This document shows, one piece after another, positions 1,938 to 45,870 of a stretch of DNA of 64,000 nt (the first letter of the stretch is position 1; each line of letters begins with the position of its first letter). The translations under genes were made by a program, and so were the position numbers. Below the pieces are notes generated by a model. That model searched no databases. It saw nothing but the letters and a program-made list of their open reading frames with translations, and was not told the origin of the DNA. The stretch comes from Octopus sinensis (lineage: Eukaryota), in NCBI RefSeq assembly GCF_006345805.1, contig NC_043002.1, positions 70,618,001-70,682,000 of the forward strand, written 5' to 3'.

Positions 1938-3973
1938 ACACACACACGCGCGCACACACACGTTTCTATGTCTGACCCTAAGAGAAAAAAACACTTTATA
2001 ATAAAAGCAGGTTATATAAGTTGCAGCAACTAGATATGTGTTCGCTATATCTTTTCTTCTGTGTTGATTAATGTTTCTAGTGGATGCACATGTATACAAT
2101 ATTCCCCATGGATCACTGACAAAAGATTATCACAGACAAAACCTCTAAGAGAGAAATTATTGGGTTTATACATAAATATATTGTAAACAGCAGAAATGTT
2201 GGGAATTCAAATATTGTCTTTCTGCTTGTAAATTTGTTAAGAAGTTCTCTTAGAAAACACTAACAAAAAATATAATGTAGCCTTAGAATATTTTTCCTGT
2301 AAAGCACTTGTAATGTGCTCATTGAAAATGGATAAATTCAAACATGTAGCGATCTTATAATCATATTATTGTAAATCCGAATTTATTCATCTTCATTGAG
2401 CACTTTACAAAACATTTCAACTGGGAACTATTTTCATATTTGGGATATATTTGTATAATCGGTATAAGACGTCCAGTGCTATTTTACGTTTACATATTCG
2501 TTTTGTTGTTAATATCAGAGAGTTGAGTAACACACACCTGCATTTGTGCTCCAGCTTGGTACAGAGCCCGCTATTGTGACTAAGTTTATAAAATCCTGCA
2601 ATTACGAGCATGTCTATATGTAAAATTAAATGATAGAACTGTTGTGTTATAGTTTATCAACAATATGACCAAGGTCAAATATCTCAGGGCAATATTCTTT
2701 ATATTGCATAAATATACGGTTAGGGACTTGTATATTTAATATAGTGAGAAGAAAAATACTGGTGATCTGACTTTATTCATGTACGTCATGAAACAAATTT
2801 CTCTTTAATCGTGTCTAAAATCTAAAATGCCAACAAGCACAGGTATAAGTCCACAAACATCAACCAACCAATTCCCTGAGGTATACTCAGTTATATTGTT
2901 GATATCCTTTATCTGCGTCATTATAGTCATTCTATTTAAGAATACACCGATTACTGTCAGTTTTCCCAATCGAGTAGAATAGAGTTCCCTGAGAATGTGT
3001 GATAAGACCGAATCATACTCTATATATTCATCAGTTGTTTCTTACAAAAAAAAATGGATGTCATATGCAATTTAGATATTGTTGTGAAACTGCAGGGTAG
3101 ATATTTTTTTAGTTCGCTCCAACACATTTGTATTCAAATTTTGTTTTAATCACTGAATAGAGATGTTGTCTACGAGCAACTTTTTAACTCTCAATAATTC
3201 GAGAGTCAAATATGCAATATACCAATTTATATCTCACTATATTATAAATGTAAAACTCTTCCGTATGTCCTATGATTTGATCGCAAGTCAAAGTAAAACC
3301 TTCTGGCTTCACAGAACGCTTTTACAATCTTTATCTGAAAAGTTGTAAGATGAGTGTCTCCTGCTTTTTACTACAAATTTGAGGATTCATTCGTTCATTG
3401 TTACAAACGTGTAACAAATACTATTGAAAATATCTATTTTGCTACTTTAAAAGTGGGGACATTGAAAAGTGATTTAAATATAGATACTGAATTTACGCGA
3501 GGGACAGACCTGGACTTTTTCATTTTTCTACTTGCTTAGTGACTGAAAACACAACAACTCTGCCAAAATGTCATTCATATATAGCAAGTAATTACTAGTA
3601 GAAGTGAAGTCAAGCGTTTGCCACTCACCGTTATCTGTCTTGCCAATAATTAATGTCAACAAAATAGGAAATTGAAGGCTTTCTGTCTGCTTTGTCTATT
3701 ATCACATCTTCCAAATACTTAGACTTCAGCAGCCATGAATATATTCGTATGAATGAAGCCAACGAAGAAACTATTCACCACTCAATCTGTAAGCAATAAC
3801 AGCCAAATTTTCCTGAAATCATATTCCGTTTTACAATGAGACTGAACACAAGATGTCTCTCTTTCTGCCTTGTTATATATATGTATGTATATATATATGT
3901 ATGTATATTGATAGAAATGGCAAGACAACAAAAGAATGAAAGAGACCTCGATATTATGTAAATAGAGGAATTT

Positions 3974-5440
3974 ATCTGTAACTATGATATATGACAATTA
4001 TTCGGTAGCCATGATAAAACTCCGAGTTTCGAATGTCGGGGCGGAAACCCACGACGGCATCTCTTCAGTGTGTTAAATATCAGGTTCATCTCAACTACTA
4101 ACTTTAAAATTATAATCGCATGCAACACACAAAAACCACAATATGAAACCAGCTGTTCATGCAGGAAAAAAAAATTGTGCTCGCTAAATGGAGCTTGCAT
4201 GTCCGAGACCATCATTTATGAAGCCAACGTGGACTCTATATCCACTAAGGATATGGTTTCGACGAAGAAATACGTGGACATTACAGAGGGTAATTACAAG
4301 GTCAGGTTCAATAATTGCACCTTGAGCTTCTGGCACTGGGATAAAAGGAAAACGACCCAATTTTCAAGTCATATATGGTCCTTAAAAGATAAAGGTGTCA
4401 GTTACAAGATCCATTGGAAGGTCTTAGCCAAGTGTAAGCCCTACACCAACACTAGTGGAAACTGCAGTCTTTGTGATATGGAAAGATGGCTCATCTGGAA
4501 AAGCGGCTTAGACCCCGCTACAGGTCTGAATTCAACAACTGAACTTTTCGGAAGATGCCCATATGTAGCTGAATATTTGTTACGTTTATGGTTCCCCCGA
4601 GATTACATACAGGACTTGCTTTCTATATTGTGTCCATATACAAGCTTTTTATCTCTCTATACTTTTTACTTATATTTCTTATATATATTTTTTATATATT
4701 GTTTTACACATTTATAGCAATATTGGTTTATAGTTTTATTGCTCATATATTTTTTTACACATAATTTTTCTGTATTCTACATTCCACCCTGCACTTTTCA
4801 TGTGTATATATAGACGTGCATATGGAAATTTTGTGTGCGCGTGTGGATGTGTGGATGTGTGCGGGTATGTGTGTATATAGACGTGAGTGTGTGTGCGTGT
4901 ATGTGCGTATATAGACGTGTTTTACTAGTATTGCTTATTTTTTTACACTTCTTTTTACACATTTTTCTGTATTTTGCCTTTAGCCCTGTTTCCTTGTGTA
5001 TATGCGTATATAGACGTGTGTAGGAACCTTTTTGTGCGAGCGTGTATGCGGCTATGTATATATTTTTTGGCGAATGTGTAGGTGAGCATGCGTGTGTATC
5101 AAGTGAGGGTGGATGAGTATATACACATAGGCGCATGTACGTGGGTGTGCGGGTGCGCATTTGTATGTATGGACATGCGCACTTACGCGAATACTATGAA
5201 CATTTTTACTCCCTTACATTTACTCCCACCCCATTACTTAGCGATCATCCTAATAACTCTTTTGTCTTAATAACGGTCAATGACACAGTAATTTCCCTTT
5301 CATTTAACGGTCATTTTCATAGCATCTTTTTCGATGGCCCGATGACAGCAGAGATGGCGGCGTGGGTTTCCGCCCCGACATCAGAAACTTGGAGTTTTAA
5401 CATGGCTACCAAATAATTGTCACATATTATATTTACAGAT
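3974..5440 (+). mobile_element. Penelope-like element fragment with GIY-YIG endonuclease and ~90 bp inverted pseudo-LTRs
   Basis: ORF 4070-4717 has CSCR..CSLNGAC..IIYEA..Y..ITEG..K.RFNN..SF..FSSHIWSLK..I.WKVL..C.LC..E..LN..E..RC (Neptune-type Penelope C-terminus). 3974-4063 is the reverse complement of about 5350-5440. Confidence 0.85.
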
Positions 5441-5471
<31 letters not shown>

Positions 5472-5532
5472 ATATTTTATAATATATGTATATATTATAT
5501 TTATATTATATATATATATATATATTTGTATA

Positions 5533-5593
<61 letters not shown>

Positions 5594-5598
<5 letters not shown>

Positions 5599-6284
5599 TT
5601 AAAATTACTAAGTCTCTCTAAAAGAGAACACGGCAGCGTTCCCGGAAAATAATAGTTATCGCCATACTAATATGGCATTCTTATAAAAATAAGAATAAAG
5701 CTGACCGCTTATTAGCTCCATGAGGCCATCGCCTTAAGTTAGCTATTTGATACACAACTGTATCCATATAACCTTCGAACAAGGGAGGTCAGTCGCTCCA
5801 CACTACTTGACCGACAGCTACAGACGCGTTCGGGGTATTGCCCCTTTTCAATGCAGCGTAGTCAGACCAGTAGGTGTCGCTTCCGACAATCTCTGTTCGA
5901 AGGTTTTATTTACCTAGTTTCGGTGGAATACATCCACTTGTTTTCAATAATAGAAATATTAAAATTACTAAGTCTCTCTAAAAGAGAACACGGCAGCGTT
6001 CCCGGAAAATAATAGTTATCGCCATACTAATATAGCATTCTTATTAAAATAAGAATAAAGCTGACCGCTTATTAGCTCCATGAGGCCATCGCCTTAAGTT
6101 AGTTATTTGATACACAAACTGTATCCATATAACCTTCGAACAAGGGAGGTCAGTCGCTCCACACTACTTGACCGACAGCTACAGACGCGTTTCGGAGTAT
6201 TGCCCCTTTTCAATGCAGCGTAGTCAGACCAGTAGGTGTCGCTTCCGACAATCTCTGTTCGAAGGTTTTATTTACCTAGTTTCG
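5594..6284 (-). mobile_element. Tandem 360 bp HHR-containing element (about 1.9 copies), retrozyme/pLTR-like
   Basis: 5594-5953 is repeated from 5954 with near identity. Each unit carries a hammerhead motif on the minus strand. Flanked by (TA)n. Confidence 0.8.
6178..6219 (-). ncRNA. Minimal type I hammerhead ribozyme, U3-A8 core variant
   Basis: Minus strand GCUGCA-UUGAAAA-GGGG caaua CUCC-GAAA-CGCG-UC-UGUAGC. Stems I and II pair, stem III is a short palindrome, GUC site. The sister copy at 5817-5857 lacks one A of GAAA. Confidence 0.75.
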
Positions 6285-6364
6285 TGTATAATATTTTCTA
6301 ATTTATATATACATATATCACATTTTGTGAAATTTGTTTTAGTTATTCTAAATTGAATTTTTAT

Positions 6365-33699: not shown

Positions 33700-34326
33700 C
33701 CAAGTGGGCTTAATTTGTCGACTCCGAAAAGATGAAGGGTAAAGTCGACCGCAGCAAAATTTGAACTCAGAACGTAACGGCAGACGAAATACCTATTTCT
33801 TTACTACCCACAAGGGGCTAAACACAGAGAGGACAAACAAGGACAGACAAACGGATTAAGTCGATTATATCGACCCCAGTGCGTAACTGGTATTTATTTA
33901 ATCGACTCCGAAAGGATGAAGGGCAAATCGACCTCGGCAGAATTTGAACTCAGAACGTAGCAACAGACGAAATACCTATTTCTTTACTACCCACAAGGGG
34001 CTAAACATAGAGGGGGCAAACAAGGACAGACAAACGGATTAAGTTGATTAGATCGACACCAGTGCGTAACTGGTACTTATTTAATCGACTCCGAAAAGAT
34101 GAAAGGCTAAGTCGACCTCGGCAGAATTTGAACTCAGAACGTAGCGGCAGACGAAATACCTATTTCTTTACTACCCACAAGGGGCTAAACACAGAGAGGA
34201 CAAACAAGGACAGACAAACGGATTAAGTCGATTATATCGACCCCCGTGCGTAACTGGTACTTATTTAATCGACTCCGAAAAGATGAAGCGCTAAGTCGAC
34301 CTCGGCAGAATATGAACTCAGAACGT
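33700..34326 (-). repeat. Tandem array (about 3.5 x 180 bp) of a SINE body
   Basis: Repeating unit gttctgagttcaaattccgccgaggtcgactttgcctttcatcctttcggggtcg...tttagccccttgtggg on the minus strand. Confidence 0.85.
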
Positions 34327-34604
34327 ACCGTTCAAACCGAAAAGGTTCTAAATATCTTCTATTTTGTTTCATGTATTTTCTCCATGGATTTTCTTCATAC
34401 GCTTTCAAACGTATCGATCTTTACAGGTTTTCACACGTTTTGTTTTATATCTATGTAAATATGTATATTCCTACGCCATTGCTTTGTGTGCTGAATGTCC
34501 TGGCATTTTAATATTTATTTATGTTCAACGGTGTGTATATATGGGGATGATATAAAGTTGCTTGCTCAATACTGATGTATGTTTTTTCAGCCATTGTATA
34601 TGTA

Positions 34605-45104: not shown

Positions 45105-45870
45105 AAACGAGCTGGCAGAGTGGTTAGCACACCGGGCGAAATGCTTAGCGGTATTTCGTCTGCCGTTACGTTCTGAGTTCAAATTCCGCCGAGGTTGATT
45201 TTGCCTTTCATCCTTTCGGGGTCGATTAATTAAGTACCTGTTACGCACAGGGGTCGATATAATCGACTTAATCTGTTTTTCTGTTCTTGTTTGTCCTCTC
45301 TGTGTTTAGCCCCTTGTGGGTAGCAAAGAAATAGGTATTTCGTCTGCCGTTACGTTCTGAGTTCAAATTCCGCCGAGATTGACTTTGCTTTCATCCTTTC
45401 GGGGTCGATTAAATAAGTAACAGTTACACACTGGGGTCGATATAATCGACTTAATCCGTTTGTCTGTTCTTGTTTGTCCTCTCTGTGTGGGTAGCAAAGA
45501 AATAGGTATTTCGTCTGCCGCTACGTTCTGAGTTCAAATTCCGCCGAGGTCGACTTTGCCTTTCCTCCTTTCGGGAGTCGATAAATAAAGTACCAGTTAC
45601 GCACTAGGGTCGATGTCATCGACTTAATCCATTTGGAAAGGCGGCGGGCTGGCAGAAACGTTAGCACGCCTGGCGAAATGCTTAGCGGTATTTCGTCTGC
45701 CGTTACGTTCTGAGTTCAAATTCCGCCGAGGTCGACTTCGCCTTTCATCCTTTCGGGGTCGATTAAATAAGTACCAGTTACGCACTGGGGTCGATATAAT
45801 CGACTTAAGCTGTTTGTCTGTCCTTGTTTGTCCTCTCTGTGTTTAGCCGCTCGTGGGTAGTAAAGAAATA
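45105..45870 (+). repeat. Tandem array of SINE units (tRNA-like head plus gcctttcatcctttcggggtcgat domain)
   Basis: About 4 repeats of the ~180 bp unit. Single copies at about 33000, 43085, 44680, 51990-52860 and 62470. Confidence 0.85.

Follow-up and report, generated by a model that had tools for sequence, protein, structure and literature searches.

Metazoan non-LTR retrozymes were described from coral, mussel and axolotl as tandem non-coding units of 150-450 bp with less than 45% GC, one type I hammerhead per unit and a self-paired monomer, and circles were reported for them (Cervera & de la Pena 2020, PMC7229834); mussel units in that account measured 350-390 bp. A monomer circle or circular template was proposed in the available parts of this paper and of the work on hammerheads in Penelope-like elements (PLEs; Cervera & de la Pena 2014, PMC4209133), which also gave a U3-A8 covariation with ~1,300 hits in Schistosoma Cercyon PLEs. 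U3-A8 was elsewhere presented as a natural covariation that is active in vitro (PMC3088659, in the part available). Endonuclease-positive PLEs of the Neptune/Nematis type were reported to occupy (TA)n targets as partial tandems with an inverted 5' copy and a tail at one end (Craig et al. 2021, PMC8557442). A preprint on frogs regarded animal retrozymes as non-autonomous PLE derivatives, with proposed use of PLE enzymes and co-occurrence with active PLEs (Li, Clavereau & Pollet 2026, 10.64898/2026.07.22.740005). Both the PLE origin and the circular intermediates were thus already proposed in the literature, going by the accessible text of PMC7229834 and this preprint. LINEs of the Tx1 clade were described as targeting other transposons and snRNA genes (PMC4494074).

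The repeat studied here is genuine and young, and belongs to a family of metazoan non-LTR retrozymes whose core is of the U3-A8 type. It lies in a window of 64,000 nucleotides of Octopus sinensis DNA (contig NC_043002.1, positions 70,618,001 to 70,682,000) and shares with the coral, mussel and axolotl elements the tandem non-coding units of that size range and GC content, the single type I hammerhead per unit and the self-paired monomer. By contrast, as far as the available part of PMC7229834 describes those elements, the octopus family stands apart: nearly every copy has U3-A8, stem I is greatly extended, the PLE footprint with its inverted arms and tail is clear, and a site-specific LINE is resident. 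Circles were reported there and are a prediction for the octopus family. Like endonuclease-positive PLEs, it targets (TA)n, forms partial tandems and bears an inverted 5' arm and a tail at one end, but the octopus unit contained no ORF, had a tail of ~62 nt versus 30-40 nt and formed many pure repeats (compared with the accessible part of PMC8557442). Stems I and II were of canonical size, unlike the minimal hammerheads described for PLEs in the text available of PMC4209133. The frog retrozymes were linked to PLEs by co-distribution and pLTR homology, going by the available part of the preprint (10.64898/2026.07.22.740005), whereas the octopus family offers an integration footprint in an invertebrate, with no pLTR homology found in the PLE regions searched.

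At the window locus, the near-identical head-to-tail repeat of ~360 bp was recovered as the earlier note had reported it (~1.9 units, 98% alike, with 4 substitutions and 2 single-base indels over ~330 nt), and so were one type I hammerhead per non-coding unit (361-363 nt, 40% GC) and a palindromic stem III (ACGCGU) (Table 1). The array had been placed between (TA)n tracts; this was correct for the left end, which abuts (TA)n at 5459-5599, but not for the right end, where ~77 nt of AT-rich unique DNA precede the next (TA)n at 6362. The 3' end of the insertion fell 7 nt before the point where tails of the family usually end. A hammerhead had been claimed for every unit on the minus strand; the right one was complete, reading GCUGCA-UUGAAAA-GGGG/CUCC-GAAA-CGCG-UC-UGUAGC, but the left one had GAA for GAAA, as the note's own 'GAA(A)' implied. 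In the assembly, single-base deletions were about as common as sporadic substitutions (255 vs 271). Folding of the ribozyme within its long stem gave a z of -6.5 (0/200 shuffles as good), and that of the cut-to-cut monomer a z of -5.3 (0/100). Stem III was not recovered by MFE folding, as expected because it has only 2 bp in the monomer. The spacing of the two sites (361 nt) agreed with the ~360-nt monomer that had been foreseen from cleavage at both. However, release from this locus is unlikely: the left core, as assembled, lacks one A, and the sole promoter-like site is placed between the two cores, with the intact one upstream of it and the defective one downstream. The locus therefore probably yields no monomer alone, and this copy is probably a dead end. 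Two consecutive complete ribozymes, the sign of an 'active' element in Li et al., were present at other loci and absent at the window locus as assembled.

Table 1. Features of the retrozyme-type insertion, numbered from the first base of the window
Feature	Position	Strand	Basis
1.9-unit insertion of 361-363 nt retrozyme-type repeat, 5'-truncated, single-armed	5594..6284	-	sequence alignment
Complete type I hammerhead with U3-A8 core, stem I, stem II of 4 bp (one of them G-U), stem III of the palindrome ACGCGU, and GUC	6178..6219	-	motif and stem covariation
Predicted cut of right hammerhead	between 6184 and 6183	-	motif
Second hammerhead, one A of GAAA missing as assembled (mutation or assembly error)	5817..5857	-	motif
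Predicted cut of left hammerhead	between 5823 and 5822	-	motif
Monomer from cut to cut (361 nt, 40% GC), with strong self-pairing and no conserved ORF	5823..6183	-	folding, ORF check
Extended stem I around ribozyme; second copy 5770-5905	6131..6267	-	folding, covariation
Weak snRNA-type proximal-sequence-element-like site, sole one in array; predicted start near 5884	5925..5944	-	matrix score
17-nt site duplicated on insertion of site-specific LINE, empty here; second copy 6230-6246	5868..5884	-	sequence comparison
Penelope-style 3' tail between the family's two fixed 3' end points; short end at 5649	5594..5648	-	end mapping
(TA)n microsatellite, target at 3' end	5459..5593	.	sequence

The retrozyme was inserted into the (TA)n at the end of an older, decayed PLE fragment (3874-5575), which belonged to a 717-aa (Nematis-like) family. 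This fragment retained a GIY-YIG-type coding remnant (~4073-4704, plus strand), an inverted end (3874-4069) and a 3' end with a worn hammerhead-like motif (5280-5575; 75-83% to the young family). Elsewhere in the window, tandem arrays of ~183-bp units, presumably a SINE-type repeat from their looks, occurred at 33718-34327 and 45111-45870.

A 34-nt core pattern, left free at positions 3, 7 and 8, had exact matches in at least 1304 cores across the 2.7-Gb genome and 0 in the reversed control, showing that the motif is not due to chance. U3 and A8, for which a lack of joint conservation in other copies had been named as one refutation, were kept together in 1296 of these 1304 cores. The primary paper on 3-8 exchanges is Przybilski & Hammann 2007, cited through PMC3088659. 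When the genome was searched with the repeat as DNA, 2100 candidates were returned, and the 40 that were scored were mostly 96-99% identical. Older subfamilies of 80-88% identity kept U3-A8 and held the other core positions constant, with A, C or U at position 7; the strict core pattern was matched by 105 of 133 cores. All elements of the type I core were present (3-8 pair, U4 G5 A6 A9, G12 A13 A14, A15.1-U16.1, H17 and three stems), together with a bulge in stem I and a loop II of 5-6 nt. The proposed structure, laid on 16 chosen subfamily sequences, had 95.9% of cells paired versus 30-45% in slid controls, and both sides had changed in 7 pairs, which include stem I as well as the first pair of stem II. 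Shuffles were as good in 0/500 cases for cells paired and 7/500 for pairs; such shuffles can be outdone by mere relatedness among the sequences, and greater weight thus falls on the slid control and on where the changes lie. The 3-8 pair was invariant within this alignment. The covarying stems and the drift of position 7 indicate that the core is conserved and not decayed, which upholds that part of the earlier note's compensatory reading of U3-A8. A fresh double change did not stand: U3-A8 was inherited. The pair is also already described in the literature.

A C3-G8 sister family gave 0 matches with the single looser pattern tried genome-wide, and Rfam returned no hammerhead match to the window motif at gathering or E<=10 thresholds. 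The longest stop-free sense frame ran to 35-57 codons across 6 arrays; an antisense frame of 111 codons was rejected as a gene since it occurred in 1/6 arrays. A second, older U3-A8 repeat family of ~270 nt (L062, L063 and L064) was also encountered, unrelated outside the core and with the basal pair of stem II mismatched.

Copies of the family carry the insertion footprint of PLEs, with (TA)n targets, head-to-head arms and a tail on one arm. Arms were mapped in 64 non-redundant loci taken from the best matches and the core-match list, with older subfamilies and duplicates left out. Two arms stood head-to-head in 45 of 61 LINE-free loci, and 16/61 were single-armed as the window copy is. A tailed end was paired with an untailed end in 42 of the 45 two-armed loci, the tail reaching ~62 nt past the short fixed point. 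Of the 104 fixed 3' ends, 99 were followed by (TA)n and 2 by (TAA)n, and the remaining 3 had neither repeat next to them. Arms were longer than one unit in 67 of 111 cases (median arm 406 nt), and arrays of up to ~10 pure units existed. The same footprint was borne by the subfamilies of 80-88% identity, and young autonomous PLE families of this genome likewise had tailed and untailed ends in (TA)n.

Three PLE protein queries, with 114-150 of more than 15,000 candidates scored in each, led to four or five young families. Of 14 regions retrieved, one came from another family and one gave no ORF; the others belonged to two young families, in which every locus (6/6 and 6/6) bore a U3-A8 hammerhead in its 3' UTR, with a palindromic stem III. 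These families were labelled Neptune-type by their linker motif; Pfam recognized the RT domain in both and GIY-YIG in one, and the UUGAAAA string of the retrozyme core also occurred in one. Among 6 PLE 3' regions (at shuffle level) and 87 PLE loci, no PLE had homology to the unit beyond the core; an AT-rich match of the unit to one PLE scored 32 versus a shuffle maximum of 31 and was judged chance. The two Neptune-type families showed no homology with the unit beyond the core in these searches and are therefore candidate partners only. No ORF with RT plus GIY-YIG lay inside the unit, and none was linked to it in line at the loci examined. PLE fragments beside four retrozyme loci (L009, L032, L046 and L066) and in the window were considered as linked partners and read as independent insertions into shared microsatellite targets.

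The two young autonomous Neptune-type families, of 781 and 784 aa (L200-L211), had hammerheads with the predicted cut after UA/UU and an optional tail of ~34 nt. In a very young 717-aa PLE family (L122-L129), whose protein had no Pfam match, insertions stood head-to-head with a tail of ~70 nt, and the 3' UTR held an atypical hammerhead-like motif. GC-rich Neptune-type families (L118, L119, L121 and L212) held minimal hammerhead-like motifs with position 4 or 6 altered.

The unit was itself a target. A 5.35-kb LINE inside it encoded a zinc-knuckle ORF1 and a 1140-aa endonuclease-RT ORF2 (Pfam), the latter with endonuclease, RT and zinc finger. Among the best 30 3'-end matches, from 40 scored of 473 candidates, the same 17-nt unit site came next to the LINE 3' end in 29, which exceeds the 20% of copies in one target that marks a target-specific LINE; in 2 of these 29 the site was followed by another LINE. 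When LINE loci were read at length, 22 of 23 sat in the unit and 21 of these 22 were full length with an identical 5' junction, and 33 exact 5' junctions were counted genome-wide. Host sequences on both sides came from five subfamilies, which were intermixed on the LINE tree; this poorly resolved tree required 9 host changes versus a minimum of 4, and 2/200 shuffles were as low, indicating some clustering. Repeated site-specific LINE insertion is the best reading, and some co-amplification is possible. A 5' flank common to three loci was first taken for a 5' transduction, which was rejected because the flank is the LINE within the unit. From its domain order, the LINE is probably of the Tx1 clade; the homologues retrieved for it bore no informative names. 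Endonuclease-RT, zinc-knuckle ORF1, a single site in a multicopy element and tandem stacking are shared with Tx1-clade LINEs (Tx1 in Tx1D, Keno in U2, Tx1-Mar), but the target is a ribozyme repeat, unlike those given in the available part of PMC4494074, and the clade likeness is one of domain order. No retrozyme or ribozyme repeat was found as a LINE target in the literature searched.

LINE copies within the repeat unit were nearly always full length (L214:3148-8502, G000:C1 ~12.34 Mb, and L248-L267). Tandems of LINE, target duplication and LINE occurred, as did an array with a period of ~5.7 kb (G000:C3:72.50-72.53 Mb). The sole copy outside the repeat (L263) was 5'-truncated, and its duplicated target resembled the first bases of U1 snRNA, which may be chance.

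A promoter matrix was built from the U1 and U2 upstream elements of the same genome (38/40 loci, offsets -56 to -61). The best matrix site in the unit predicted a start at about position 301, where the duplicated LINE target begins, so that the LINE insertion position lies ~57 nt behind a weak snRNA-promoter-like site. This score was the best of all unit positions, yet 33/300 shuffles were as high. In the second, unrelated U3-A8 repeat family, the best site had the same core spacing in 1/2 copies (87 nt vs 88-90).

Taken as a whole, we put at about 65% the reading that the window holds a young copy of a non-coding hammerhead tandem element with a PLE footprint, likely transcribed into an RNA that cuts itself, closes to a circle and is then written into (TA)n by an RT/endonuclease of Penelope type acting in trans. 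Transcription would start from the internal snRNA-type site ~60 nt before the cut, as the weak matrix score suggests. The U3-A8 hammerhead is predicted to cleave at GUC, probably with the aid of stem III, whose palindrome lets two copies pair as a dimer, and ligation would give a circle of ~362 nt, by analogy with the coral, mussel and axolotl retrozymes as far as PMC7229834 describes them. In the loci, copies start within (TA)n from one constant internal CTATTAT point and continue past the cut for 0.2-10 units, and a second inverted arm forms with or without the ~62-nt tail; priming and copying by a PLE enzyme would account for both. The endonuclease-RT LINE, in full length, enters the unit at a single constant position and probably borrows the promoter of the unit. 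A three-tier chain may also be considered, although we would sooner bet against it. In it, a Neptune-type PLE enzyme sharing the ribozyme core would roll a U3-A8 hammerhead circle, driven by its own snRNA-type promoter, into (TA)n. The LINE would sit exactly at the transcription start of the circle gene; its RNA would then have the 17-nt target at the 5' end and stop where the downstream hammerhead cuts, giving almost only full-length insertions.

The element could also be PLE-driven with uncut or slowly cut linear multimers as templates, the hammerhead being weak or used for trimming only and circles a by-product or absent, which we consider unlikely though far from negligible. Templates were analyzed in 82 loci (the 64 mapped loci plus the upstream parts of 18 LINE-bearing loci), where the predicted scissile bond was crossed intact 174 times, a count inflated by the selection of loci that contain a complete unit or core. 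These crossings suit multimers, as do the 2 bp of stem III in the monomer, the poor in vitro cleavage reported for PLE hammerheads (PMC4209133, in the part available) and the 8 of 9 tested frog retrozymes without cleavage in vitro, according to the accessible text of preprint 10.64898/2026.07.22.740005. Arm 5' ends, however, did not pile up as multimers would have it: none of the 146 formed a pile-up at the predicted transcription start, and 2/146 possibly lay at the cut (mean 0.96 per position). An apparent 5'-end cluster at the cut, tried as a genomic trace of cleavage, was gone once microhomology was allowed. With one composite locus set aside, a subfamily substitution was fixed in every pass through its locus in 163 of 172 cases. 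The missing pile-up at the cut and the uniform passes fit a monomer circle but also uncut multimers, since a rarely cutting ribozyme with multimeric templates would leave the cut just as free of run-off ends. Most loci had 1-2 units per arm, too short for seeding longer arrays repeatedly, and core and stems were kept across subfamilies ~20% apart; both speak against multimers. Long arrays showed 2- and 4-unit periodicity and local expansion, indicating that part of the tandem length arose after insertion and that tandem length alone is no evidence for rolling-circle copying. Contigs of four presumed-RNA runs covered the whole unit and joined end to start, but tandem DNA would do so too, and neither strand, ends nor circularity can be read from them. 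Two-/four-unit higher-order periodicity and local unit amplification were seen in three arrays (L164, L072 and L176) and may reflect multimeric circles or later duplication.

That the unit is the mere pseudo-LTR of an unfound autonomous PLE, and the arrays its short 5'-truncated partial tandems, is improbable. Unit and autonomous Neptune-type families do have the integration footprint and the U3-A8 core in common, and pLTR homology was given for 24 of 57 frog families in the available part of preprint 10.64898/2026.07.22.740005; yet none of the loci examined joins the unit to a same-orientation PLE ORF with shared flanks, the sole recurring 5' flank is the LINE, pure arrays reach ~10 units, and the PLE UTRs tested from the three protein queries (114-150 of >15,000 candidates scored in each) lacked homology. 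Mobilisation of the repeat by its resident LINE, or spread of LINE plus repeat as one composite, is very improbable. The inverted arms of the repeat and its constant end points in (TA)n contrast with the 17-nt target duplication of the LINE, and ~33 full junctions stand versus more than 1300 cores; the uniform full-length LINE copies and the partial correlation of host subfamily with LINE lineage would suit it, but the 9 host changes on the tree and the LINE-duplication-LINE tandems do not. A satellite-like repeat amplified by DNA recombination, with the ribozyme a dead relic, would explain the higher-order periodicity of long arrays, but dispersed short insertions with fixed 3' and variable 5' ends, together with compensatory stem changes, largely refute it and leave it a very slim chance.

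For animal retrozymes, PLEs have so far been proposed as the source of the spreading enzyme, and a young family with a clear PLE footprint bears on this question. The octopus family adds footprint evidence for PLE-type insertion, a core common to active Neptune-type elements and a site-specific LINE whose ribozyme-repeat target is of a type not found in print. More than 1,000 conserved U3-A8 cores were missed by Rfam and C3-G8 descriptors, suggesting that retrozyme surveys undercount such elements. The clear footprint and the intact candidate PLE ORFs of 784, 781, 717 and 1008 aa in the same genome make a direct trans-mobilisation test possible, and the unit, being short and defined, would serve as a template on which the formation of tails and inverted arms by PLEs can be studied.
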